Origin: Alphaproteobacteria bacterium
GTDB taxonomy: Bacteria > Pseudomonadota > Alphaproteobacteria > RF32 > CAG-239
Length of the DNA stretch: 64,000 nt
Direction of reading: 5' to 3'
Assembly (NCBI GenBank): GCA_045537965.1
Contig: JAZSQL010000054.1
Coordinates: forward strand, 15,224 to 79,223
The notes under the pieces were generated by a model, which worked only from the letters and a program-made list of their open reading frames with translations, did no database searches and had not been told where the DNA came from. Shown here one piece after another: positions 45,348-64,000 of the stretch. How positions within the stretch are numbered: the stretch's first letter is position 1; every line of letters begins with the position of its first letter. Position numbers and translations under genes: made by a program.

Positions 45348-46601
45348 CTAAAAGTCTAAACTTTCAGGTGATAATAAGAAATCTTTTAACCCTACAATTA
45401 AAATACCAGATTCATTGTAGTACGGTTTTCTGCTACCTCCAACGATAATGATTTTCTTAAATCCATCAGGAATATTAAGAAGTGACCTTTCTTCCTGTTT
45501 TTGTTTTTCTTCAGTAGGCATACTATATGCTGATTGTATGTAATATCTTTTGCTTCCCAAATTAACTACAAAATCAACTTCTAATTTCTTTTCTTGCTTT
45601 TTCCCTGCAGTATTTTTCTCTGTAACTGTAACTTCTCCAATATCAATTTGGTAACCTCTTATAGTTAATTCATTATATATAACATTTTCCATAAGATGAG
45701 TTTCTTCTTGCTGACGAAAATTAATTTCTGCGTTTCTTAATCCTACATCAGTAAAGTAATATTTTGCAGGTGTATTGATATATTTCTTTCCTTTTATATC
45801 ATAACGAAGCACTTTGTTTATTAAAAATGCATCTTCTAAGAAAGATAGGTAATTCTTTATTGTCGGTGCTGTTAAATCTAAATGTTTCTTGCTTTTGAAT
45901 GTATCTGCTAGTTTTTGAGGATTTGTTAAAGAACCGATATTAGATGCAACAACAGCAAGCAATTCTTCTAATTCTTCAGAGTTTTGTATTTTGTTTCTTG
46001 CTATAATATCCTTTAAGTAAGTTTCTTTATACAAATTCTGCAAATATTTTGCTTTTTCAATATCTGTATTGAATTTGAATAATGCAGGCATTCCTCCATA
46101 TACACTATACTCATTCCAAGCATCGTCCCAATCTGTGTTTTTATGAGCATAAAATTCGGCAAAACTCAATGGATGAATACGAATTTCATCTCCTCTACCT
46201 CTAAATTCTGTAACAATATCAGTTGATAAAAATTTAGAATTACTTCCGGTTACATAAACATCTAAGTTTTTAATTCGTAAAAATCCGTTCAAAACACTTT
46301 CAAAATCTTCCATCATTTGAACTTCATCAAGTAGTAGATAATACATGTCTTTGTCTTGTATTCTTTCTTTTACATAACTTGTGCATTCATCAGGATTGCG
46401 ATATTTTTCATCTTCTCTGGTATCTAATTGAATAGAGATAATATGGTCTTCTTTTACATCGTTTTCTAATAAGTGGTTATAGAATAACTCAAATAACATA
46501 TATGATTTGCCACAACGACGGATACCACTGATTATCTTAATAAAACCATTGTGTTTGTGGCTAATAAGTTGATTTAAGTAGGTATCTCTTTTGATTTCCA
46601 T
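45348..46601 (-). CDS. AAA-family ATPase with a DUF4143-type C-terminal domain (start re-placed at MEIKR)
   Basis: MEIKRDTYLN...GIRRCGKS (Walker A) ...LLLDEVQ (Walker B). GGAGG RBS 5 nt upstream of this ATG. The upstream part of the tracked ORF is a translated palindromic repeat. Confidence 0.8.
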   Translation of the reverse strand: MEIKRDTYLNQLISHKHNGFIKIISGIRRCGKSYMLFELFYNHLLENDVKEDHIISIQLDTREDEKYRNPDECTSYVKERIQDKDMYYLLLDEVQMMEDFESVLNGFLRIKNLDVYVTGSNSKFLSTDIVTEFRGRGDEIRIHPLSFAEFYAHKNTDWDDAWNEYSVYGGMPALFKFNTDIEKAKYLQNLYKETYLKDIIARNKIQNSEELEELLAVVASNIGSLTNPQKLADTFKSKKHLDLTAPTIKNYLSFLEDAFLINKVLRYDIKGKKYINTPAKYYFTDVGLRNAEINFRQQEETHLMENVIYNELTIRGYQIDIGEVTVTEKNTAGKKQEKKLEVDFVVNLGSKRYYIQSAYSMPTEEKQKQEERSLLNIPDGFKKIIIVGGSRKPYYNESGILIVGLKDFLLSPESLDF

Positions 46602-46612
46602 AATTGCCTCCA

Positions 46613-46718
46613 TTTTAGATTTTGCCGACAAGTCGGTATTTTCTAAAATAATATACATTAAATAGATAAAAGTCAAGAGTATTTTAGATTTTGCCGACAA
46701 GTCGGCATTTTCTAAAAT
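46613..46718. repeat. Two copies of a 37-bp palindromic element (46613-46649 and 46682-46718) in the promoter region of the AAA ATPase gene
   Basis: ttttagattttgccgacaagtcgg(t/c)attttctaaaat, with inner palindrome ccgacaagtcgg and outer arms tttaga/tctaaa. Copies are 69 bp apart. Confidence 0.55.
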
Positions 46719-46780
46719 GAACAAACCACCACCTTATATAAAAGTAGCGATTTTATAGGAGAATTTATTGTTTAGTGGGC

Positions 46781-47577: not shown

Positions 47578-47979
47578 CTATTTAATCTGTGTTTTGTAAA
47601 GAGAACCATAGATTGAGTTATCTTTTGCTAATAATTCTTCATGTGTTCCTATTTCTACAATCTCACCATAGTTTACAACAACAATCTTATCGGCATTCCT
47701 AACAGTAGATAGGCGGTGTGCAATAATAAACACCGTTCTATCTTTCATAAGATTATCAATGGCTTGTTGAACAACTGCCTCAGATTTATTATCAAGAGCT
47801 GATGTTGCCTCATCTAAAATAACAATAGGAGCATCTTTGATAAAAGCTCTGGCAATGGCTATTCTTTGTTTCTGACCACCTGAAAGCAAAACACCTCGCT
47901 CACCAATCTCTGTATCTAAACCTTTTTCAAGACTAGATATAAATTCTTCTAAACAAGCACATTTAATAGCTTTATGGTG
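47578..47979 (-). pseudogene. 3' fragment of an ABC exporter ATP-binding domain (signature to C-terminus only)
   Basis: Frame encodes ..[45 protein letters not shown]. No Walker A or TMD. The fragment begins exactly at the stop codon of the upstream gene. Confidence 0.7.
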
Positions 47980-48966
47980 CTATTTTATAATGGTATTTCG
48001 AAAAGAAAGTCCTAATAGTGATTTAAGATTATACAAAATTTTCTTTTTACTATGTCTTAGTCTAATCGACCAATAAAGGCGTTTTACTTTTTCCTTATCA
48101 TAAAGCGGTAATTTATAATTTTTATCGCAGTATTTTTTGTATAATTTTAACCATTCAAAATGAGAATACATTGCAAACATTTCATAATGTGTATGTATAT
48201 TATTATGCTTATATGAATTATACCCAATATCAATAGCATCTAACAAAACAGTATTATTTGCAAATATATGTTCTGATTTCTCTAAATTACCATGCTCTAT
48301 ATCAACACTATGTTCAAATTCTAATCGAATATGACGACGCAGAAATGCTACCCAAATATATTGCTCTGCAGAATACTGGCATAAAGCTGGAACCCAATTT
48401 TCATATTTCACAATCGGACGTTTATGTGTCTCAAAATAACGTGAAGTCTGGGGCTCAGGACATAAAGGAGAGTTAAAAACATCTATTAAGTCTTCTCTTA
48501 AACCAAAGAAGAACCAATCGGAAGGATGATATGGTTTAGCTTCTCTGTGTGGGTTGGGTGCAAATCGCGTAGACATCAAAATGCGTTCTTTAGTTATCTT
48601 ATATTCTGTACATCTTTGGGGAAATCTATCCCAGTAATTTAAGAAATTTATATTATCAAAATACATATCGGAACGAATTTTTAAGGCATATTTTCTAGTT
48701 GCCTTTTTCAAGCCGGCTAAAGTTGAAACTATTTGTCGATTGCATGCATTCAATATTTTAGGGTTATCCCACACGGGATATCCTCCAGGATCTTTGCTTT
48801 CTATAATAACATCAGCCAATTGATGTTGATAATTACTACCTTCCCAAGTAGATACAATAATCTCTGCATCTGGAAAAAACTGCCTGATATTTGTAACAGT
48901 ATTATCTGTCATGTAATTATAAATGGGACCTTGAATAATTACTGATATATCAAAAGATTCTATCAT
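47980..48966 (-). CDS. Hypothetical protein, last gene of the glycan-decoration operon (possibly a WavE-like LPS biosynthesis protein, unverified)
   Basis: 328-aa ORF whose start overlaps the epimerase stop. Trp/Tyr-rich with no clear motif. Confidence 0.4.
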   Translation of the reverse strand: MIESFDISVIIQGPIYNYMTDNTVTNIRQFFPDAEIIVSTWEGSNYQHQLADVIIESKDPGGYPVWDNPKILNACNRQIVSTLAGLKKATRKYALKIRSDMYFDNINFLNYWDRFPQRCTEYKITKERILMSTRFAPNPHREAKPYHPSDWFFFGLREDLIDVFNSPLCPEPQTSRYFETHKRPIVKYENWVPALCQYSAEQYIWVAFLRRHIRLEFEHSVDIEHGNLEKSEHIFANNTVLLDAIDIGYNSYKHNNIHTHYEMFAMYSHFEWLKLYKKYCDKNYKLPLYDKEKVKRLYWSIRLRHSKKKILYNLKSLLGLSFRNTIIK

Positions 48967-49970
48967 TTAATATATTCCTTCTGATAATTAATAATTTCTT
49001 TCAAGCCATCTAACAAATTTATTTTCGCCTCATAATTGAACTCATTTCTTACTTTTGAGCCATCACCAAGGCAATGTTTAAATACTTCTTGTTTTACTCT
49101 TTCTTTTCTCAAATTATATGTTGCATTAAACAATTCTTCATATTTGTCCCAAAATTTTAAAGGTTCGCCTTTATCATATTCAAAAGGTTTCTCTAATGCA
49201 GAATATATTGTTTTTGCTATTTCCATAGCTGAATAAGCTTTGCCTGTAGCGAGATTGAAAATATCAGCATTATATTTCTTATCTGATATTGCCATTCTGT
49301 GTAAATATTGCATCAAATCATAAACGTATATATAATCCCTTTTGCAATCTTCCGTATTATAAATTGTAGGCTTTCTTCCAGCTAATGCTTCACGAATTAA
49401 AAAGCTAGTAAAAGGCGGATATTTACGTTTAAAATCTTGATGCGGTCCAAAAACGTTAAAAAATCTACATATTACAATATCTATACCATAATTTTGAGCA
49501 AATGATTTGCAAACTTGTTCAGCACAATATTTTGTTGTTGCATAAACTAAATTAGGGTGGACATCATCTGTTTCTTTATGTACTTCATTTGCTGGATTGT
49601 TTTCATAAACAGCTGATGTCGATGCAAAAATAAAACGTTTAACATTACTTTTTCTGATAGCGTTCAAAACATTAGCGACACCTGTGGTGTTCACGTCGAA
49701 AGCTTTGTCTGGGTGTGATTCACATTCTGGAAGAGCTGAAATACCTGCAAAATGATACACTATATCTATATTTTCTAAATACTTCTCAAAATTTTGTTCC
49801 CTTACATCTGCTTGTATAAAATTTTTAGATAATATTTCATTATCTTCAAAATTATCTCTGTAACCATATTCCAGATTATCTAGAATTTTGACATTATGCC
49901 CTTCTTTTAGTAAAAACTTACCTAGTTCAGAACCAATAAATCCTGCACCACCTGTAATCAAAATATTCAT
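48963..49970 (-). CDS. NAD-dependent sugar epimerase/dehydratase (SDR extended family)
   Basis: Rossmann motif ITGGAGFIGSEL and the catalytic YxxxK (YATTKYCAEQ). Confidence 0.85.
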   Translation of the reverse strand: MNILITGGAGFIGSELGKFLLKEGHNVKILDNLEYGYRDNFEDNEILSKNFIQADVREQNFEKYLENIDIVYHFAGISALPECESHPDKAFDVNTTGVANVLNAIRKSNVKRFIFASTSAVYENNPANEVHKETDDVHPNLVYATTKYCAEQVCKSFAQNYGIDIVICRFFNVFGPHQDFKRKYPPFTSFLIREALAGRKPTIYNTEDCKRDYIYVYDLMQYLHRMAISDKKYNADIFNLATGKAYSAMEIAKTIYSALEKPFEYDKGEPLKFWDKYEELFNATYNLRKERVKQEVFKHCLGDGSKVRNEFNYEAKINLLDGLKEIINYQKEYIK

Positions 49971-49983
49971 TTATTTCTCCTAT

Positions 49984-51042
49984 CTATTGTAAATATTCTT
50001 TAATATTATTGTTTCTCGGCAATGTAATGGCTATTCCTGAAGGATATGGATTTGTTGGAGCAAAATCATTTACAACAACTCTTGCTGCATGATTCATTCC
50101 CATAAGCATTGCATATGGCTTTATGCCGTTTTCATTTAAGATTTTTTCTAAATCTGTTCTAAATTCTTCTGGACGAGATGTTGTTATTACAATTTGAGCG
50201 CCATCATCTTGTAATTTTCTAATTGTTTCCATATTTTCAGGTAAAGTTTCAGTGTTGTTGTACCAATTACGTTTTCCATACTTTCCGCAATTTTTCATCA
50301 AAACACCATCTACATCAACAAAGTATGTTCTATGTTTTTTTTGTACTTCTTTCCACTCTGATAAAGTACCCCAATCATCATATGAAAGAGCTAATATTGA
50401 TGAAAATACGTAATTATTTGAAGCCAACATATACGAAATCACATGACTTATATACATTTCACCTGATATTTTCTTTGTAAGCATTTCATCATATGCATTT
50501 ATAAAATCTAAAGCATTTTCGAAACAATAAACGCCCAAGCATATAATATTCGAAACCACCTGTTTTTCTATAATGTCATGGATAATTCCCTGTTCATTTA
50601 CTATGAGAAAACTTTTTCCCGGTATGTTTGTAATATCAGGATGTTCATGCAAATTGTAACCAACAATTGAATTTTTAATTTGTTTGTTAAAGTTAACCTC
50701 TACGCGATTATCCGAATCTTTAATAACAAATGCACCCTCTACATTCATTTTCTTTAGTGTCAAGTAAACCGTCTCACTAGCTGACGATGTAAAATCATCT
50801 AGCATACAAATTTCTATTTTGGGATTGTTCTCAAAAACTTGCTCCATAATAAGCTTAGCTTCATATTTTTCATCATGAGGCTTAACGATAGTGATGATTA
50901 TTCTATCAAACACATCTACGTTAATTTTCTCCATTGATTTTTCAATCATTAACTTGCCATCTGGACGAGTTAACATGTATTTGGGTTTCATATTAGGAAA
51001 ACGACTGGATTTTCCGGCGCATGGAATAATTAAAGTATTCAT
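49984..51042 (-). CDS. Bifunctional sugar/phospho-substrate nucleotidyltransferase (MobA/LicC-like) with a HAD-like phosphatase domain
   Basis: N-terminal IIPCAGKSSRFPNMKPKYML (NTP-transferase G-loop). C-terminal FVDVDGVLM (HAD motif I DxDG) and ITTSR (motif II). Confidence 0.65.
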   Translation of the reverse strand: MNTLIIPCAGKSSRFPNMKPKYMLTRPDGKLMIEKSMEKINVDVFDRIIITIVKPHDEKYEAKLIMEQVFENNPKIEICMLDDFTSSASETVYLTLKKMNVEGAFVIKDSDNRVEVNFNKQIKNSIVGYNLHEHPDITNIPGKSFLIVNEQGIIHDIIEKQVVSNIICLGVYCFENALDFINAYDEMLTKKISGEMYISHVISYMLASNNYVFSSILALSYDDWGTLSEWKEVQKKHRTYFVDVDGVLMKNCGKYGKRNWYNNTETLPENMETIRKLQDDGAQIVITTSRPEEFRTDLEKILNENGIKPYAMLMGMNHAARVVVNDFAPTNPYPSGIAITLPRNNNIKEYLQ

Positions 51043-51923
51043 TATGCCTCCATTTCATTTATTGAGTTTAAAACGCTTTCAAGAGCATTATTTAAGAAAA
51101 GTATTGTTGTTTGGTCTTTAGCGTATGGATAAATTCGCAAGACATTTAAAAGTAAAATATGATATATTGTAATGACATTTTGCTTGCCATTTTCCATGGC
51201 ATATAAATTATCTAGCAAAGCTTGTTTAGCTGTTGCTAGGCGTAAATTAAGATTATAATTTCGTTCTTGATGTCTATATGACCAGCCTAAATCAATATCT
51301 TGTAAAAGTTTTGCTACATCAATCATCCAAGAGTTATAAAATGAATCTAATAAATCAATTACGTAAATGCCTGATGACGAAAGTATAATATTCTCTAATG
51401 TTAAATCACCACAACAAGCTGAAAGAGGAACATTTTGGAAGTTAAATTCTTTTAACTTATTTAGAGATTTCAGAATTAATTCATTGTTTATATCGCATGT
51501 TTTGTATAAAGATAAAATTTTTTCCTTAAAAATACTTTCACTTTTATCCGTAACTACACTTTGTTTTATGGGTAACGACTTAAATAATAGCCCTATCAAA
51601 TCAACTATTTCTTTTATTTTAATTTGATTCATATATTCTGACATACATATGCCATTAATGAATTCCATATCAAAATAAAAAAGATTATTATTATCATAAC
51701 CATAACGTAAAACTTTAGGTGTTTTTACGGCATCAAGCTTAAACCACTTTTGTTTAGCACATTGTTTCTTTAATCTGTTGTTATATGACACATTTCCAGC
51801 ATCTTTACGTAAAAAAAAGACATCCTTTTCTTTATAAAGATTAAGTTGGCAACCTGAATGCCCTTTTAATTCCTTAATATGTTCAAAATTTGTTAACAAT
51901 AAATATTTTTTATCAACAATCAT
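51042..51923 (-). CDS. Choline/ethanolamine-kinase-like phosphotransferase (APH/LicA family)
   Basis: Brenner/APH-like motifs CCGDLTLENIIL and VIDLLDSFYNSWMIDVAKLL. 293 aa. Confidence 0.55.
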   Translation of the reverse strand: MIVDKKYLLLTNFEHIKELKGHSGCQLNLYKEKDVFFLRKDAGNVSYNNRLKKQCAKQKWFKLDAVKTPKVLRYGYDNNNLFYFDMEFINGICMSEYMNQIKIKEIVDLIGLLFKSLPIKQSVVTDKSESIFKEKILSLYKTCDINNELILKSLNKLKEFNFQNVPLSACCGDLTLENIILSSSGIYVIDLLDSFYNSWMIDVAKLLQDIDLGWSYRHQERNYNLNLRLATAKQALLDNLYAMENGKQNVITIYHILLLNVLRIYPYAKDQTTILFLNNALESVLNSINEMEA

Positions 51924-54091
51924 TTTATAATTTTCCTTAGATTTTGTAATGATTGCTCATAAATACTATCAGATAAAATTTTAAGATTTTTCTTCTTGTC
52001 TTGATACTCTTCTTCTGACATTTCAATAGCTTTAATCATTAACGATGCCAAATCTTCCTCATAAATCAAAGAATTTTTATCATTAAAACCATAAAAATCA
52101 GCAAATTTTTGCTGTATTAAGCACGGAATATTAAATCCGTATATCAGTTGAGCTGAGCCTGTAACACCGGTTGTTATATATCGATTATGTTGAGAATTAT
52201 TACAATCTAATAATGGCAAAAAGAAATCCGCTGTTTCCACTTGCTCATACATTTTTGGAAAACTCAAAAATCCTTTAAGGTTAAAATAATTTCGAAACTT
52301 ATTTGGAATATCATTTAATCTTCCTCTGCCAATAACATTTATTTTACAATGATATCCGTGTTGACATATAATATCTACAGCATCAATCAAAAGACGATGA
52401 TTTTTTTGTTCAGGATTTATTCCGCCAACTACAATAAAAGTGGTAGCCTTATTTTTTTTATGTTTTTTATAAGTTCCGAAATAATGCGGATTTACATATA
52501 TCCCCTTACTAAATTTACCAAGAGTAACAATTTGTTTATTTTTATCAAATTCTTGCAAATTAAAAAGAGGGATATCTGTAATATCATGTTCAACAATTAA
52601 AGTTTTTGATTGTCCTTTTGGCCAAAAACCTATTTTATCTTTTAATGAAATTATCTTTGAGTAGTCATAAGTTAATAAAAATCTGGAACTAGTTACAAAT
52701 ATAAATTTATATTTTTTAATTTTAGCTTTGTTAAAAAAATATTTCAAAAATATTGGACAGAAGGAAAACAATTTAATTTGTTTAGTTTCTATTCGTTTAA
52801 ATGGGTGCTCTTTAACATTCTTTTCAGACATTAAAACATCAACATTGTACCCTAAATCAAGCAAATATTTGGCATATCCGACACCTACTTCAGCATGACA
52901 ATCATTGGGTTCTACTAATAGAACACTATTACCACGCACTGATGTAAAACAGAATCTTGCTAAATTTAATAACGATTTTAATGATAATAAACTTAAGGTA
53001 TTTTGAACCTTTTTTCTGGTGTCTTTTTTCCAAATACAACAGGTTAAAATTTTTATAATTCTCTTTTTTAGCTTAATTTTGTAATATATTTTAGAAATAG
53101 GTATGTTTATGATAGAAATATTTCCCGTTTCCTTATTCTTAGAAAATAAAGGAAAGCAAAATAATTTAATCTTCTTGCCATAGCCATTTTTTTCTTTCCT
53201 CCATTTCAAAATATTGAGAAAATATAATAGTCGTAATCTCCTATAAAATGGTGTTATTTTTGCATATTTCCAGAAATACACACTATAAGGGACATTTGGA
53301 GTATTCCAAGGTTTTCGAGAGGATGCGTAGTGAAATAGAAAAGGAAATTTTTCTGCGTTGAGCATTTCTTGATTTTGGGATACGTCTTCTGTGCGATGTG
53401 TACAAAAACTGTATTTATAATCCAAGATTTTATAGTTATTAGCAAAGACAATATTTAATACATCTAAATCTGGATATTGAAGATCTTTTTCGTACTCATA
53501 TGTGGCGTCGATAAGCTTTTGGGTGATATTATTTTTACGCCAATAATCGCAATTAATAAGCAGGTTTCCTGATTGAAAATATTTATGTTGCGGTGTAATA
53601 CCAAATTTCTTTTTACGCATTATATGGTTATCAATTCCCTCTAGAGGCATGCCAATTTCTTCTATAGGTGCTGCTAAGCCAAAATTTTCTACGTTTATAT
53701 CATAAAAATCTTTAATATCCGCATTAAAAATAACATCAACATCAGAATAAATAGCCTTTGATATTTCTGGTTTTAGAAGAGGTATTAAATAACGATTATA
53801 CATTGCAAGTGAATAATGATTACTTGTTTTAGCATTGGGGAAAAATAACTTGACATCAACATTAAGATATTCGACATCAAAATTTTTCCATCGTTTTTTC
53901 AAACTAGCAATTTTTGATTTTGCTGATTGGGAAACACCACTATCCAAAATATAAAATGAAACAAATGACTTTGTATGATCCATTATAGAGGCTATTGTAG
54001 TGGCAATAAATGGGGCATATTTTTCATCTGATGCTAAAAAAACAGGTATTTTTTTTTGAATCATTTTTTGCTCCAATTTTCTAAAATCCAA
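51920..54091 (-). CDS. Two-domain glycosyltransferase: N-terminal GT8 (LPS glycosyltransferase-like) and a C-terminal GT-B-like domain
   Basis: N-terminal IPVFLASDEKYAPF..YLNVD..YSDVDVIFNADI (GT8 DxD). 723 aa. Confidence 0.65.
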   Translation of the reverse strand: MDFRKLEQKMIQKKIPVFLASDEKYAPFIATTIASIMDHTKSFVSFYILDSGVSQSAKSKIASLKKRWKNFDVEYLNVDVKLFFPNAKTSNHYSLAMYNRYLIPLLKPEISKAIYSDVDVIFNADIKDFYDINVENFGLAAPIEEIGMPLEGIDNHIMRKKKFGITPQHKYFQSGNLLINCDYWRKNNITQKLIDATYEYEKDLQYPDLDVLNIVFANNYKILDYKYSFCTHRTEDVSQNQEMLNAEKFPFLFHYASSRKPWNTPNVPYSVYFWKYAKITPFYRRLRLLYFLNILKWRKEKNGYGKKIKLFCFPLFSKNKETGNISIINIPISKIYYKIKLKKRIIKILTCCIWKKDTRKKVQNTLSLLSLKSLLNLARFCFTSVRGNSVLLVEPNDCHAEVGVGYAKYLLDLGYNVDVLMSEKNVKEHPFKRIETKQIKLFSFCPIFLKYFFNKAKIKKYKFIFVTSSRFLLTYDYSKIISLKDKIGFWPKGQSKTLIVEHDITDIPLFNLQEFDKNKQIVTLGKFSKGIYVNPHYFGTYKKHKKNKATTFIVVGGINPEQKNHRLLIDAVDIICQHGYHCKINVIGRGRLNDIPNKFRNYFNLKGFLSFPKMYEQVETADFFLPLLDCNNSQHNRYITTGVTGSAQLIYGFNIPCLIQQKFADFYGFNDKNSLIYEEDLASLMIKAIEMSEEEYQDKKKNLKILSDSIYEQSLQNLRKIIK

Positions 54092-54507
54092 GAAGATGAA
54101 TTGGGCTTAACTCTTCCTGAAACAGAAGTTCCCACATTATACTTAATTTCAATATTTAATGATTGACACGTTGGAATTTCGGGGATGTTATCTGCAGTCC
54201 GATCTCCACCTTTAGCAAAAGTAAGATTTGCCGTAGGATATTTTTGTCGTGCTCTTTGGAGCCCATCGCAAGCAGTGTTGTCGGAATCATCAAAAACAAT
54301 TACATCTACAACACCTTTAATATTTTCCATAATCATTCTACGTGTTTCAAAATTCATAAAAGGCTTTCCTTTTTTACGAGTTAGCCATGCATCAGAATTA
54401 AGAAGAACAATAACACCATCGGAATTTTCACGACTTTCGATAATGTTTTCTATATGTCCTTCATGTAGTGGATCAAATCCTCCGCTAACGATGTATAAAA
54501 TAGTCAT
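54061..54507 (-). CDS. Cytidylyl/adenylyltransferase-like protein (HIGH-motif nucleotidyltransferase, RfaE domain II / TagD-like)
   Basis: IVSGGFDPLHEGH (HxGH motif) at the N-terminus. 148 aa. Confidence 0.7.
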   Translation of the reverse strand: MTILYIVSGGFDPLHEGHIENIIESRENSDGVIVLLNSDAWLTRKKGKPFMNFETRRMIMENIKGVVDVIVFDDSDNTACDGLQRARQKYPTANLTFAKGGDRTADNIPEIPTCQSLNIEIKYNVGTSVSGRVKPNSSSWILENWSKK

Positions 54508-54511
54508 AACT

Positions 54512-55480
54512 TTAATCCTCTGATAAACGACAGTTGTTTTTTTGTGTTTTGGTTAACCAATAATATATGATTCTGTTTTTAATGGATAAATTACGTGGTC
54601 TAAAAATACCTTGTTTTTCCAGTTCTTTTAAAACAGGAAGATATTGTGTTAGCCATTTATTATAATTCTTCTTATCTTTTTTCTTAGTGAACTTAACTAC
54701 ATAACCAAATAAGCGTTTTGCGATATAATGTTCCAAGTCTTTTTTCGTTTTTTTATCCAATGTATTATTATCAAACATACTAGAAAGTTTAATTGCAATT
54801 AAAAGCTCGTCATCCAATCTCTTTTTGGTTAATGGTTTGGTCATAGCACTATTTTCTCTAGTGCGATAAAAATACATATCCGAATGAATATAAACTGCAT
54901 ATTTTGCTCTATGGAGTACCTGATAAAGGAATATCAAATCTTCTCCGACAGACAAATCTTCTGAAAATGTTAAATTTTCAAGCAAATTCTTACGATACAA
55001 TTTATTCCATATAGACGATACTATTTTAGGCTTTTGATGTTGTACATAATGATCAAAAGGTTTGTCGTAAATTTTCTCTGACGTCTCAAAAAAGTTCCAT
55101 TCTGCTTTATTTTCACCTTTCTCAAAATCGCACCATGCAAATCCAGCTTCTGATCTTTTTTGTAAAGCCTCTAACATTTTTTCTAAGAAAACAGGGCATA
55201 TTTCATCATCGCTATCAATAAAGGAAATAAAATCTCCATTTGCATGTTGCAATCCATTGTTTCTAGCTGCAGAAACGCCTTGATTTTCTTGATATATTAT
55301 TTTAAAACGACTATCTTTTCGTGCATATTCATCTAAAATAGCACCACAATTATCAGGACTTCCATCATTAACACAAATTGCTTCCCATTCACAAAATGTT
55401 TGTGCAAGAACAGAATCTAAGCATCTTTTTAAGTATTTCTCTACTTTGTAGCAGGGAATTATAATGGAAACCTTAGGCAT
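54512..55480 (-). CDS. Family 2 glycosyltransferase
   Basis: VSIIIPCYKVEKYL..NDGSPD..DSDD motifs. Confidence 0.85.
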   Translation of the reverse strand: MPKVSIIIPCYKVEKYLKRCLDSVLAQTFCEWEAICVNDGSPDNCGAILDEYARKDSRFKIIYQENQGVSAARNNGLQHANGDFISFIDSDDEICPVFLEKMLEALQKRSEAGFAWCDFEKGENKAEWNFFETSEKIYDKPFDHYVQHQKPKIVSSIWNKLYRKNLLENLTFSEDLSVGEDLIFLYQVLHRAKYAVYIHSDMYFYRTRENSAMTKPLTKKRLDDELLIAIKLSSMFDNNTLDKKTKKDLEHYIAKRLFGYVVKFTKKKDKKNYNKWLTQYLPVLKELEKQGIFRPRNLSIKNRIIYYWLTKTQKNNCRLSED

Positions 55481-56477
55481 TACAGCTCCTTTTGTTTTCT
55501 AATTTTCTTAAGCGATACATAACTGTGTTTGGAGCAACGCCATACACTTGACCTATTTCTTTATAGGTCATACCTTTTCTGCGCATTTTGATAATTTCTT
55601 TATCTAAGCCAAATAGCTTGGTTTTATATTCAGCCATCTTATTGGCTCGGGTTAGCTCCATTTTGCGAATTTTTGCTCCAATCCAAACAGGATGAGCATT
55701 AACTTTTTCGCCGATTTCTTGTAATGAACGGCCTTGTTCGTACATTTTCTTTATCAAGCGTTCATCTTTGGCTAATTTACTATTGATTTTGATATCAGAT
55801 AAAGGACGAGATAAATTAAGTTCTTTTATTTTGGTTGTAACCGTCATAAATGAACAGTTTAGTTTTTTTGCTATCTCTTCTACTGACAAACCTTTGTTAA
55901 ATAAACGTCTAATGGTATTCTCTTTACCATCAAGTTTTTTTACTACAGGAATCTTAATTTCATAAAGAGCTAAAAGATTAAGAACTGTTTGTGGATTTAC
56001 ATTATATCTTCTTGCTACTTCCGCTTTAGAAATTCCAGAATATAATAACTCCAAAATCTCATCTAAATAGATTTCAAGACAATTATATTTGTGTTTATTT
56101 TCTGGTTTAATTCCTGCTTTTTTGTTCTCTGTTCTAACTTTTAATGCTTTGGCTTGTTGTTCTATAACCTCTTGTGGTGGGTTATAAATACCAAGACGTT
56201 TCCTTCTTGTGAGTAATGTTGACGAATGTATGTTTAACTTTTCCGCTATTTCTCTGTAACTTAAACCTTGTTCTTCAAGTGATAATATATCTTCCTTGTC
56301 AATATTCTTTCTTCTTAAACGAGGTTCTCTTTTTAAGCCAAGCTCATTAATTTTATTGCATAAGGTTGTTTTACCAATAGAAAGCTTCTCAGCTATTTGC
56401 TCCAAAGTTAAATCTGAGTTAAACAGCTCTATAATGTGTGCGTTTGTAAATGATGCAGAGGTTGAAGCGTTAATCAC
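55473..56477 (-). CDS. Protein composed of six tandem resolvase-type HTH repeats
   Basis: Six ~50-aa repeats, each ending in an HTH such as IAEKLSIGKTTLCNKINELGL, IAEKLNIHSSTLLTRRKRLGI, VARRYNVNPQTVLNLL, IAKKLNCSFMTVTTKIKELNL, IGEKVNAHPVWIGAKIRKMEL, IGQVYGVAPNTVMYRLRKLE. Confidence 0.6.
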   Translation of the reverse strand: MINASTSASFTNAHIIELFNSDLTLEQIAEKLSIGKTTLCNKINELGLKREPRLRRKNIDKEDILSLEEQGLSYREIAEKLNIHSSTLLTRRKRLGIYNPPQEVIEQQAKALKVRTENKKAGIKPENKHKYNCLEIYLDEILELLYSGISKAEVARRYNVNPQTVLNLLALYEIKIPVVKKLDGKENTIRRLFNKGLSVEEIAKKLNCSFMTVTTKIKELNLSRPLSDIKINSKLAKDERLIKKMYEQGRSLQEIGEKVNAHPVWIGAKIRKMELTRANKMAEYKTKLFGLDKEIIKMRRKGMTYKEIGQVYGVAPNTVMYRLRKLENKRSCNA

Positions 56478-57114
56478 TAGCTATCCCTCCACTAATCATT
56501 TTCAATTCAGGGTATTGTTGCAGGTATTTAAATATCAGCGAGATGCTACAACCAATAGTTTTAGCTATTTGTTTTTTTGTTTTTCCTTCGTGATACAACT
56601 GAATTATTTTATATTTGTTGCGTTCTAATATGGTAGATTTACATTTTTGCCCTTTGACAAAACCTAATATAGCGCCTTGATCTTTTTTGTCTTTTAAGGC
56701 TTTTTTAGTTATGGTAGAAACCATAGAATTACGGATATCTATTGATAGTTTAATCCCATTAAGAAGTTGAGTTGTTTCGTTAGAAGAATCGAATTTGAGG
56801 TTTTCTTTGACACTTATTAATTCAAATCCGTTTGAAACTAAAAATTCTATATTTTCTACAATTGTTACTAATTTGCTGCCTAAACAGGCTATATTAGCCA
56901 CAATGAGCGTATTTTCTTTGGAATTTATATTATCCTTAATGTTTTTGATATCCGGGTCATTGATGAATATATCAATATTATATGCATTATTACGAGCATA
57001 TTGATTTACAATGTCTCGTTGTTCATCTGCGCTTATATTCCTTTGGTTGTTATCCAAATATCCAATAATCACTATGCGCCCCTTATAACAATAAATGCTT
57101 TCGCCATATATCAA
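56470..57114 (-). CDS. Resolvase/invertase homolog lacking the catalytic serine and DRLGR motif (likely non-catalytic); TTG start
   Basis: Starts MIYGES.. but reads GYLDNNQRNISADEQ where YxRVSTxxQ is expected, and IACLGS where SRLGR is expected. C-terminal HTH (KKQIAKTIGCSISLIFKYL) is retained. Confidence 0.55.
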   Translation of the reverse strand: MIYGESIYCYKGRIVIIGYLDNNQRNISADEQRDIVNQYARNNAYNIDIFINDPDIKNIKDNINSKENTLIVANIACLGSKLVTIVENIEFLVSNGFELISVKENLKFDSSNETTQLLNGIKLSIDIRNSMVSTITKKALKDKKDQGAILGFVKGQKCKSTILERNKYKIIQLYHEGKTKKQIAKTIGCSISLIFKYLQQYPELKMISGGIASD

Positions 57115-57304
57115 CGTTTTTGGCGAGGGGTTTTCTTTGTTTTTTCAAAAGGCTACGATTTTTTAAGAAAAGCTTGGATTTGTTGAAATTTTCCTTGCTT
57201 TATTAAATTTATTGGATTAAGGATATTTGTTATGTAATCTAGACGTTGGTTTATGAAGAGTGTCTATTTTATATAGGTTTTCCCTTAGAAATATTGGTTA
57301 TTCT

Positions 57305-57330
57305 TATAAATAGTTATGTAACTATTTGTA
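57305..57330. promoter_or_regulatory. hix/res-like 26-bp site: 12-bp inverted half-sites around a 2-bp centre (TATAAATAGTTA tg TAACTATTTGTA)
   Basis: Located 10 bp upstream of the invertase ATG, in the 226-bp region between divergent resolvase-family genes. It also overlaps a TATAAAT -10-like box. Confidence 0.35.
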
Positions 57331-57340
57331 AGGAACTGAT

Positions 57341-57964
57341 ATGATTTATGGATATTGTAGAATAAGTACGAATCACCAACAGGTTTGTAATCAACGACAC
57401 GAAATTCAAATATTTGCCGATAAAAATAATATAAAAATTGATAAGTGGATTGAAGAAACAATCTCTTCTAAAGAAGCATTAACCAATAGAAAACTGGGAA
57501 AAATATTAAAAAAACTCAAAAAAGGCGATATTTTAATTGCATCTGAACTTTCTCGTTTGGGGCGAAATTTGCTTGAGGTTATGGGAATTTTACAAAATTG
57601 CCTCGAAAAAGACTGTCAAATCTGGACTTTGAAAGAAAATTATAGGCTTGGAGCGGATATTCAATCAAAAGTTTTGGCTTTTGCATTTAGTTTAGCAAGC
57701 GAGATAGAACGCCAACTTATTTCAGAACGCACTAAAAATTCACTTCAAAGACTAAAAGATGAAGGAAAACATTTGGGCAGACCATATGGTTTTAGCTACA
57801 AAAAACTACAAAAGAAGCACAATAAGATAAAAGAGCTATTGGATAAGAATGTATCAAAATCAGAAATTGCAAGGCTTATGGGGTGTACTTGGTCTACTTT
57901 GAATAGATATATAAATGAGGCAATAATAGGTAATCAATTACAAGATGTAATTTCAGAATCGTGA
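57341..57964 (+). CDS. Serine recombinase of the resolvase/DNA invertase family
   Basis: MIYGYCRISTNHQ (Ser nucleophile), ELSRLGRN, and a C-terminal HTH (SKSEIARLMGCTWSTLNRYI). 207 aa. Confidence 0.85.
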   Translation: MIYGYCRISTNHQQVCNQRHEIQIFADKNNIKIDKWIEETISSKEALTNRKLGKILKKLKKGDILIASELSRLGRNLLEVMGILQNCLEKDCQIWTLKENYRLGADIQSKVLAFAFSLASEIERQLISERTKNSLQRLKDEGKHLGRPYGFSYKKLQKKHNKIKELLDKNVSKSEIARLMGCTWSTLNRYINEAIIGNQLQDVISES

Positions 57965-63027: not shown

Positions 63028-63816
63028 TTAAAAAGCTAAACCACACCGAACGTAGGTGCGGTAGTTCGTCTTATTGTTGTCGAGCATGGTGCCAGATATC
63101 ATGGCGAGATTCCACGCGGCATAGGAGCCGTACGCGGTGGAAGACCAGTAGCGGTAGGTAATGTCTAAAGCCGTTCCACCAGAGTTAGTGAGGGCGGTAT
63201 CTATGGTTGTTTGGTTATCATATATAGCTTTTAATTCTTTTAAACTAGGTAAGAACCAACTTCCTATAGGTTGTTCTCCTTCAGTTAAATTATAACAATA
63301 TCCTGGTGCATAATCACTAGAAGCATAATCTCCTCCTAAAGTCATAATAGTAGCGGTATTTTGTTTCCCTGTTGTCGTTTCTGTTAGTGCTGTACTCTCA
63401 GAGGTATAGTTAGTTAAACCTGCAATATCTTCCTGAACACTAGACCAAGCCATCATACTAGGAGCATCATTTAATCCAATAGCTAATCTACTTTCAGTAT
63501 CAAACACCACAGCTATTGGTGTTACTTTTCCGCTAGGTAAAGAAGATTCATCATAACAATTTAAATCACTATACAATATATCTCCTACAGCACAATTTTG
63601 AGGTTTGTTTGCTTCTATACCATCACTCGAACTCTCGCTCTCACAAAATACTTTATCTGTCTCAAAAGGACATTTAAGCATATTTTTTCCAGCACAATCT
63701 GTGGCTGTTTGTAAATAACCTAGATCTGCACAAGTTGGTATTTTTGTACAATCAAATTCAGCATAAGCTGATGAAGCTACAATTAAACTAGTACCTAAAA
63801 GCAAATATTTTTTCAT
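63028..63816 (-). CDS. Secreted hypothetical protein (start re-placed at MKKYLLLG with an AAGGAGATAAGG RBS)
   Basis: Signal peptide MKKYLLLGTSLIVASSAYA. Cys-rich N-terminal region and a GC-richer conserved-looking C-terminal region. Confidence 0.55.
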   Translation of the reverse strand: MKKYLLLGTSLIVASSAYAEFDCTKIPTCADLGYLQTATDCAGKNMLKCPFETDKVFCESESSSDGIEANKPQNCAVGDILYSDLNCYDESSLPSGKVTPIAVVFDTESRLAIGLNDAPSMMAWSSVQEDIAGLTNYTSESTALTETTTGKQNTATIMTLGGDYASSDYAPGYCYNLTEGEQPIGSWFLPSLKELKAIYDNQTTIDTALTNSGGTALDITYRYWSSTAYGSYAAWNLAMISGTMLDNNKTNYRTYVRCGLAF

Positions 63817-64000
63817 AACCTTATCTCCTTTATATTTTAATTTATAAATCTCATCCCAAAACGCTACAAAAGCCCTAGAAACTCTTGGCTTGCTCCCTCT
63901 ACAAAAACCAACGTTTTTGTAGAGGCAAAAAAGAGACATTTTAAAAAAAAAGAAATAAGAAAAACAAAAGAAGAATAACTTATTGAAAATATGTAATAAA

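Follow-up and report, generated by a model that had tools for sequence, protein, structure and literature searches.

The window analysed here, a 64-kb stretch (64,000 nucleotides) of contig JAZSQL010000054.1 from an alphaproteobacterial metagenome-assembled genome (MAG), contains a gene for a protein built of six serial helix-turn-helix (HTH) units. The gene holds a conserved leading position in an operon of lipopolysaccharide (LPS) and glycan genes that lies next to an invertible intergenic segment. This six-HTH protein is most likely a sequence-specific, long-site DNA-binding regulator produced only in the ON state of the switch, since the sole candidate promoter found sits within the invertible segment and would serve the gene in the ON orientation only. 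More specifically, it may represent the regulatory output of the switch, acting on transcription of its own operon or of other surface loci, an assignment that is tentative and to which we give a little less than an even chance. In this view the protein would link the ON state to the control of transcription, whether of the long AT-rich operon that contains its gene or of surface loci that compete with it, while being neither catalytic nor an obligatory part of the inversion reaction. Its six modules would be arranged along one long composite DNA site of ~60-70 bp, by proportion to the three HTHs of Cbp1.

Six HTH units in a stand-alone protein

The gene, its six HTH units and the helix that joins two of them are located as follows.

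55473..56477, minus strand: six-HTH protein gene, 334 aa, GTG start, isoelectric point (pI) 9.8; intact open reading frame (ORF) with multiple HTH matches in Pfam
56340..56456, minus strand: HTH unit 1, aa 8-46; model helices 8-19, 25-32 and 36-46
56193..56297, minus strand: HTH unit 2, aa 61-95; best Pfam family Sigma70_r4_2, 24.8 bits; helices in the model
56114..56174, minus strand: long basic helix (aa 102-121) in the linker from unit 2 to unit 3
55965..56075, minus strand: HTH unit 3, aa 135-171; best family HTH_7, 25.2 bits (gathering score 23.8)
55821..55922, minus strand: HTH unit 4, aa 186-219; HTH_38 at 26.0 bits and HTH_7 at 24.4 bits
55662..55763, minus strand: HTH unit 5, aa 239-272; HTH_38 only, 22 bits; helices in the model
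55482..55604, minus strand: HTH unit 6, aa 292-332; best family Sigma70_r4_2, 26.8 bits; helices in the model

The initial annotation had described the 334-aa product as six tandem resolvase-type repeats and had proposed repeat detection as a check. Self-BLASTP returned the identity match only and revealed no internal repeat, and the repeats were therefore assessed by aligning the units with one another and with shuffled sequences. All 15 local alignments between units, which start at residues 15, 64, 141, 189, 242 and 295 (spacings 49, 77, 48, 53 and 53), beat 500 composition-preserving shuffles (z 3.4-12.1), and for 13 of the 15 pairs none of the 500 shuffles reached the observed score, so the periodicity is significant and the claim of internal repeats is borne out. 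The motif that the annotation had given for the repeats (I[AG]EK[LV]N...) survives as a loose consensus and fails as a signature: no unit matches it exactly (4-9 of the 13 positions that it specifies agree), and its register is shifted by one relative to the actual repeats. An AlphaFold2 model built from 29 family members (mean predicted local distance difference test score, pLDDT, 82.5) shows six three-helix bundles, with a long helix at residues 102-121, assigned by DSSP on this model, in the extended linker that joins units 2 and 3.

The 'resolvase-type' label holds for part of the protein. When the units were scanned singly, the gathering score of HTH_7 (the resolvase C-terminal HTH; 23.8 bits) was passed by units 3 and 4, and units 1, 2, 5 and 6 remained below it; families better suited to these others are Sigma70_r4_2, HTH_23 and HTH_38, and unit 1, scanned by itself, has no significant Pfam family, giving only weak RWP-RK and HTH_11 matches. 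In addition, C-terminal positions 140-207 of the 254 positions of phrog_125 (DNA invertase) align with residues 105-176 at 72 bits, a stretch that corresponds to the linker helix plus unit 3, and the resolvase arm or E-helix region preceding the HTH is present for unit 3 only. Judging from this alignment, the linker helix and unit 3 look like a module derived from the DNA-binding arm of a resolvase. Unit 3 is also the most conserved unit, with nine of 20 invariant alignment columns and the highest column identity of all units.

A total of 78 Pfam families match the protein, and the 25 listed, among them HTH_23, HTH_38, Sigma70_r4_2, HTH_7 and GerE, are HTH or DNA-binding families with the exception of DUF6115; no catalytic, nuclease or transposase domain occurs among those listed. 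The Pfam scan and the structure model thus agree with the earlier description of a stand-alone HTH array lacking any other domain. The protein is strongly basic (pI 9.8; 65 K+R versus 40 D+E), and the linkers between the HTH units are basic and themselves conserved across the family. From these features we infer DNA binding through six serial HTHs. Each unit is conserved in its own position across 28 aligned homologues (35-92% identity), and such position-specific conservation of six different recognition helices points to a single, defined composite target rather than to unspecific coating.

Several other identities were considered and rejected. For a sigma factor, the total TIGR02937 score of 59.9 bits exceeds the cut-off of 42.9, but the best stretch covers region 4 only (122-158 of 165); we take the total to reflect repeated region-4 matches, and Sigma70_r2 is absent among the listed Pfam families. 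GerE matches four stretches, as in a LuxR/GerE response regulator, but without a receiver or other domain. The defining domain of a transposase is absent in the Pfam scan, and the protein has no match to the Resolvase domain of serine recombinases (PF00239).

Probable invertible promoter and adjacent invertase

The switch region comprises two recombination sites, the segment between them and a divergent invertase gene.

57105..57119, no strand: operon-proximal recombination site, hix-like, plus-strand sequence CATATATCAACGTTT; homologous to the inversion boundaries of contigs L015 and L016
57120..57240, plus strand: invertible segment, ~121 bp; collinear with L016 and inverted relative to L015
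57241..57255, no strand: operon-distal recombination site, plus-strand sequence AGACGTTGGTTTATG, reverse complement CATAAACCAACGTCT
57341..57964, plus strand: small serine DNA invertase of the Mpi family (Hin/Gin-like), 207 aa, oriented divergently to the operon

Comparison with related contigs identifies the intergenic region 57105-57255 as an invertible segment with a probable promoter, flanked by hix-like sites, and the inverton has been captured in both orientations in two lineages. Contigs L015 and L016, which come from two sequencing runs and encode an identical six-HTH protein (87% identical to that of the window), show 99.4% identity along 13 kb, the exception being a stretch of 158 nt that separates the invertase and pseudo-resolvase genes and is inverted (97.5% identical on the opposite strand). 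In the second lineage, whose six-HTH member is 35% identical to that of the window, a 143-nt segment is inverted between L011 and L012 and is 100% identical on the opposite strand. The region 57115-57340, singled out by the initial annotation, thus holds the invertible segment with its probable promoter, the inversion being shown by these contig pairs. The window's own strain was seen in one orientation, the one collinear with L016. Contigs L013 and L017 start exactly at the operon-proximal site, and L002 and L003 at the corresponding site of L001, which is how assemblers behave at junctions of mixed orientation.

The inversion boundaries are near-palindromic with an asymmetric centre, for example CGCAAACC-AA-CGTTTGCG, and share a core, AAACC..CGT, that is conserved across lineages; we take them to resemble hix sites. 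Because the two sites of the window are complementary at only 11 of 14 positions, a generic inverted-repeat search of 54-59 kb did not place the true sites among its top 25 pairs, and they were located by comparison with related contigs. Strand differences between resolvase genes had suggested that such a gene might lie inside the invertible segment, as hin does. This possibility was rejected, as the inverted block is only 140-160 bp of intergenic DNA and the same-strand resolvases are different proteins (~56-62% identical).

A candidate promoter inside the segment consists of TTGCTT (57195-57200), a 17-nt spacer and TAAGGA (57218-57223). The pattern TTGCnT-N17-TAnnnn occurs in four of six aligned segments (window, L015, L004 and L001) and always points toward the same segment end. 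This end faces the operon in L015, L004 and L011 and faces away from it in the window, L016, L012 and L001. If the TTGCnT element is the promoter, the window would have been captured in the operon-OFF state, with the promoter aimed at the invertase gene on the plus strand.

The invertase itself is intact, with the catalytic motifs YxRxSTxxQ and SRLGR preserved. Its score of 272.5 bits barely exceeds the cut-off of 272 for the Mpi 'master invertase' family (NF009949), and it also matches the Resolvase domain (102 bits) and the phrog_125 DNA invertase family (151.6 bits). A perfect palindrome at 57308-57327, AAATAGTTA-TG-TAACTATTT, lies ~14 nt upstream of the invertase ATG; it is kept with a CA spacer in L015 and L016, is missing from L004 and L011, and is a possible operator of invertase expression. 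A second perfect palindrome, with 12-bp arms, is located at 63893-63922 (CCTCTACAAAAACCAACGTTTTTGTAGAGG), has the core AAACCAACGTTT as in the inverton sites and is situated upstream of a gene (63028..63816, minus strand) whose lipoprotein-like product matches Lcl_C weakly. This palindrome could represent a third invertase target or one end of a second inverton that has its other end outside the window.

Operon organization and conservation of the locus

On the operon side of the switch, the six-HTH gene is flanked by the following features.

56470..57072, minus strand: pseudo-resolvase gene that opens the operon, 200 aa if counted from the GTG at 57072, within a mechanical ORF that extends to 57114
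47980..55480, minus strand: downstream LPS/glycan genes of the same transcription unit, defined by ORFs, Pfam matches and low GC

For the upstream gene, the GTG at 57072, which aligns with the starts of its orthologues, is most likely the start codon. Its product shows weak matches to the Resolvase and Mpi models. The catalytic Arg/Ser motif GYxRxSTxxQ has become GYLDxxQRN, SRLGR has become ACLGS and 10 aa are deleted, and all of these changes are common to five orthologues, with the C-terminal HTH kept. By its alignment, the gene encodes a conserved pseudo-enzyme, a catalytically dead resolvase, in line with its earlier designation as degenerate. This pseudo-resolvase is confined to the window's clade; its place is taken by a small HTH_3 protein in L001 and by nothing in L004, L008 and L011.

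The start of the six-HTH gene overlaps the stop of the pseudo-resolvase gene by 8 nt (GTGATTAA), with a GGAGGG Shine-Dalgarno sequence preceding the GTG, and its own stop overlaps the ATG of the downstream GT2 glycosyltransferase gene, again by 8 nt (ATGCCTAA). These overlaps on both sides are consistent with the translational coupling proposed previously. The operon, with a GC content of 0.28-0.32, encodes the GT2 protein, a cytidylyltransferase, a GT8 fusion, unknown proteins, a HAD-like protein, a 335-aa ORF (48963..49970) and WavE. Homopolymer differences split or restore glycosyltransferase genes in near-identical contigs (L015 at ~12160 versus L016, and L001 at ~10387 versus L002). The tract length differs between A7 and A8 in a GT8 gene and between A7 and A6 in a GT2 gene; in the window, the GT8 gene carries a T9/A9 tract (54049-54057) at its 5' end. 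Such differences may represent slipped-strand phase variation as a second layer of switching, or may be assembly errors.

The locus was compared across eleven lineages (the window, L001, L004, L005-7, L008-10, L011-12, L013/15-17, L014, L019/23-24, L025-27 and L029). In all eleven, glycosyltransferase or sugar-nucleotide genes come immediately after the six-HTH gene, whose stop codon usually overlaps the start codon of the next gene, and the downstream content varies by lineage (GT2, GT8, GT92, RgpF and rml genes, with WavE in the window). A small serine recombinase gene adjoins the locus in 8/11 lineages, and the link to recombinases drawn by the initial annotation is thereby upheld. Two lineages (L005-7 and L025-27) possess a phage CI-like S24 repressor gene instead of the inverton, in an operator-rich divergent region beside an integrase gene, and still keep both the pseudo-resolvase and the six-HTH gene. 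In L029, no resolvase is present in the 660 bp available upstream of the six-HTH gene. From this distribution, the invariable partner of the six-HTH gene is the glycan operon, with the invertase and inverton being frequent rather than obligatory companions. The three lineages without an adjacent invertase or inverton argue that the core role of the protein is tied to the glycan operon and not to the inversion reaction.

In several contigs (L005 1638-5409, L025 1-2429 and L014 1-5124), the operon borders on prophage DNA at its 5' end. In L005 and L025 the prophage DNA comprises integrase, DUF6456 and DUF6291 genes and the CI-like S24 repressor gene with TATATC/GATATA operator repeats, and in L014 it comprises tail genes and a 198-aa Cin/Gin-like resolvase. 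Instead of the inverton, these prophage-abutting strains have either a fixed TTGACT-N18-TATAAG promoter or the repressor gene.

The same comparison bears on a role in recombination control, the main alternative, which we consider rather doubtful. According to this explanation, the six-HTH protein and the dead resolvase would bind the hix-like sites or inverton DNA when the switch is ON and would block or bias the invertase, such that the ON state stabilises or times itself in a manner comparable to orientation-dependent FimE control. An invertase gene adjoins the six-HTH gene in 8/11 lineages, down to 35% identity, and the coupled pseudo-resolvase keeps its HTH and an E-helix-like region, so that its only obvious activities are binding to invertase sites or subunits. 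Units 3 and 4 score above the HTH_7 threshold, the invertase C-terminal region (phrog_125, 72 bits) matches the linker helix together with unit 3, and the conservation of unit 3 as the strongest of the six is paralleled by that of the site core AAACC..CGT across lineages. However, both the six-HTH gene and the pseudo-resolvase are kept where a CI-type repressor region replaces the inverton (L005-7 and L025-27), the six-HTH gene alone is kept in L029, and the inverton lineages L004, L008 and L011 lack the pseudo-resolvase. Moreover, four of the repeats are not resolvase-like, and the segment of the window showed no additional array of half-sites. Retention in inverton-less lineages speaks against such a lock as the sole role of the protein. 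A bolder version, which we regard as unlikely, holds that the six-HTH protein and the dead resolvase constitute an 'anti-invertase' module expressed from the switched operon that would, in the ON state, cover the hix-like sites and the intervening DNA and thereby set both direction and dwell time of the switch, and that poly-HTH arrays would be widespread programmable readers of long DNA sites, every HTH in the series recognising a few base pairs.

Homologues and nearest characterised relatives

A search of 5.8 billion proteins yielded 52 homologous clusters plus one marginal cluster (E 3.2e-4), whose members are nearly all 320-350 aa long, range from 92% down to 35% identity and contain the six units in constant order. 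The number of units is not strictly fixed, as family member P0046 (L008 968-2158, 396 aa) has a seventh, C-terminal HTH unit. The only names attached to the homologues are 'helix-turn-helix domain-containing protein' from alphaproteobacterial MAGs, and the species-representative genome set provided one match, also in an alphaproteobacterial MAG. A scan of JGI metagenomes for relatives gave no match. Likewise, tblastn against 50,697 phage genomes gave none, and the six-HTH protein is therefore not a common phage gene.

When 1.84 billion representatives were searched by profile, about a dozen full-length collinear relatives were retrieved, together with a large group of further poly-HTH proteins (2554 at E<=1e-10), some of which contain 10 to 13 or more near-identical repeats in 500-1500 aa. 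The repeat type common to the poly-HTH proteins is I-x-x-L-x-x-G-[LY]-[ST]-x-x-E-[IV]-[AG]-x-x-[LF]-x-V-S-x-x-T-[IV]-x-x-[RK]-[IL] with a basic linker after it, and they appear to form a large uncharacterised class. Examples are P0061 (L028 5001-7223), P0069 and P0075, which comprise 10 to 13 or more near-identical HTH copies in 500-830 aa; P0061 is located on a mobilisable element with Mob_Pre, TnpV and large serine recombinase genes. These three proteins share the repeat type of the window's family, whereas the six units of the latter have diverged and are each conserved in position, and the genomic contexts differ. In the literature on proteins with tandem or multiple HTH repeats and on invertons in Alphaproteobacteria, no description of this family or of the other poly-HTH proteins was found.

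By profile, the nearest solved relative is 2lvs (Cbp2, a di-HTH protein that binds repeats of clustered regularly interspaced short palindromic repeats, CRISPR), which matches units 4-5 at E 3.8e-12. A Foldseek search of the PDB with the whole model found nothing at E<=1e-3, the best match being again 2lvs at a non-significant E of 3.6e-2, as is expected from the beads-on-string arrangement of the model (predicted template modelling score, pTM, 0.37). The top NCBIfam model is HTH_Cbp1 (NF040595), with 70.2 bits, half of the 140-bit cut-off and thus below the score for membership in Cbp1. Being nearest by profile and by top NCBIfam model, Cbp1 and Cbp2 offer the best functional precedent. These proteins of Crenarchaeota resemble the six-HTH protein in being stand-alone tandem arrays of homeodomain-like HTHs with short basic linkers and internal duplication. 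They differ in having three and two HTHs, respectively, in being archaeal and in targeting CRISPR repeats, whereas the window protein has six HTHs, is bacterial and is accompanied by no CRISPR array. Neither a CRISPR repeat family nor an array was detected in the 64-kb window, and no cas genes occur in the eleven lineage contexts.

Cbp1 places its three HTHs in line along the CRISPR repeat and shapes transcription of the long AT-rich array (PMC10883916); it has been reported to suppress cryptic promoters and to enhance leader-driven transcription of such arrays (PMC10883916). A comparable activity of the six-HTH protein, namely coating of an AT-rich and probably horizontally acquired operon so that its long transcript is completed, either by suppression of cryptic internal promoters or by countering of silencing by nucleoid proteins, is an explanation that we judge to be distinctly improbable. 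The closest characterised relatives are indeed Cbp1 and Cbp2, the protein is strongly basic, and GC content reaches its lowest values of the window at 50-54 kb (0.28-0.29), compared with 0.33-0.40 over most of the first 36 kb. Yet the stretch at 38-42 kb is equally low in GC, the operon contains no repeated DNA motif, the score for the Cbp1 model is half of its cut-off, and six different recognition helices, each conserved in position, would be expected of a protein that reads a defined site.

Structural matches extend to the bipartite HTH arms of Tc3, Mos1 and IS21 transposases and to multi-HTH phage homing endonucleases and D5-like regulators. The Pax paired domain, the arms of Tc3, Mos1 and IS630 and the NUMOD-type arrays of homing endonucleases likewise combine tri-helical HTHs on flexible basic linkers to contact a long asymmetric site. 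However, such arms have two modules (several in homing endonucleases) together with a catalytic domain, whereas the window protein has six modules, none of them catalytic. These fold matches, the prophage genes abutting the locus in L005, L014 and L025 and the presence of a poly-HTH protein on a mobile element (L028) would fit a relic, that is, a decaying or domesticated arm of a transposase, homing endonuclease or phage regulator that is carried by chance at the margin of a mobile glycan island, with no role in the operon. We regard this origin without function as very improbable, given that about 50 clusters (35-92% identity) retain full length and an intact frame, that the position of the gene and its overlap with the first glycosyltransferase gene are invariant in every lineage, and that the protein has neither a nuclease or transposase domain nor a match in the 50,697 phage genomes.

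Regulatory role in the light of known phase-variable loci

Capsular polysaccharide (CPS) operons of Bacteroides begin with two genes for locus-specific regulators that act together with promoter inversion (PMC11685472). Like the window, these loci combine a Mpi-family small serine invertase with leader genes that encode regulators rather than enzymes (PMC11685472), and an invertible promoter of ~120-190 bp lies directly upstream of a long glycan operon. They differ in that the host here is an alphaproteobacterial MAG, the leaders are the six-HTH protein and a dead resolvase instead of a NusG paralogue and its inhibitor (encoded by upxY and upxZ), the sites of the window look like hix (..AAACC AA CGTTT..) and one locus was seen. 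The Bacteroides repeat, by comparison, is ARACGTWCGT. An UpxY-type leader was rejected as the identity of the six-HTH protein, as neither NusG nor KOW is found among the 25 listed Pfam families, and the likeness lies in the logic of the locus only.

The Hin/Gin/Cin systems show further parallels, including a small serine invertase gene that adjoins the flipped segment, sites that are nearly palindromic around an asymmetric centre and have a half-site of the AAACC type, and an orientation-dependent promoter driving a surface-structure operon that also encodes a regulator, as with fljA. Unlike in these systems, the invertase gene of the window lies outside the segment and the co-transcribed regulator is a six-HTH array. 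The closest functional analogues of the latter would be UpxY/UpxZ of the Bacteroides capsule loci, or FljA and MrpJ, regulators that accompany other phase-variable operons.

A number of observations weigh against a role of the six-HTH protein as transcriptional output of the switch. No DNA target of the protein was identified with the computational searches used, no conserved upstream DNA element is shared across the inverton, fixed-promoter and prophage-repressor contexts, and a search of the operon for a repeated DNA array, the type of target bound by Cbp1, returned only two-copy families at chance level. The promoter in the segment is a consensus match only, with the promoter scanner detecting no excess of sites over shuffled sequence. 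The pTM of 0.37 leaves the mutual arrangement of the six bundles undefined in the AlphaFold2 model. With one gene copy per contig, UpxZ-like mutual exclusion between loci is unsupported, and, to our knowledge, HTH arrays are not known as elongation factors.

Phase-variable surface glycans are a main route by which host-associated bacteria evade phages and immunity, and, as far as we know, the regulatory logic of such switches has been worked out almost only in Bacteroides. Inverton-controlled glycan operons with Mpi-type invertases in Bacteroidales were already known, as were multi-HTH readers with two or three modules (Cbp1/2, paired domains and Tc3/mariner arms) and HTH arrays joined to homing endonucleases. 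In contrast, no description was found in the literature of a six-module stand-alone array as a leader gene, of its pairing with a pseudo-resolvase or of such a switch in Alphaproteobacteria. The window and its relatives provide an analogous switch (invertase, inverton and glycan operon) in uncultured Alphaproteobacteria, with direct sequence evidence for inversion, in which the leader regulators of Bacteroides appear to be replaced by the six-HTH protein and the pseudo-resolvase. The locus offers an entry point to the regulation of such switches outside Bacteroidales and to the role of tandem HTH arrays, thousands of which occur in metagenomes. Should the modules each recognise a short DNA word, one after another, such arrays could also be of interest as modular DNA-recognition scaffolds.

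Other repeats near the operon

Two direct repeats were noted around the operon. A 22-nt repeat, 82% identical between its copies, occurs past the last operon gene (47850-47871, TGGCAATGGCTATTCTTTGTTT) and just inside the invertible segment (57121-57142, TGGCGAGGGGTTTTCTTTGTTT), and may be due to chance. A 69-bp tandem repeat at 46612-46746 (1.9 copies, 82% match) overlaps the 5' end of a mechanical ORF (45348..46724, minus strand) and lies ~1.2 kb beyond the end of the glycan operon.

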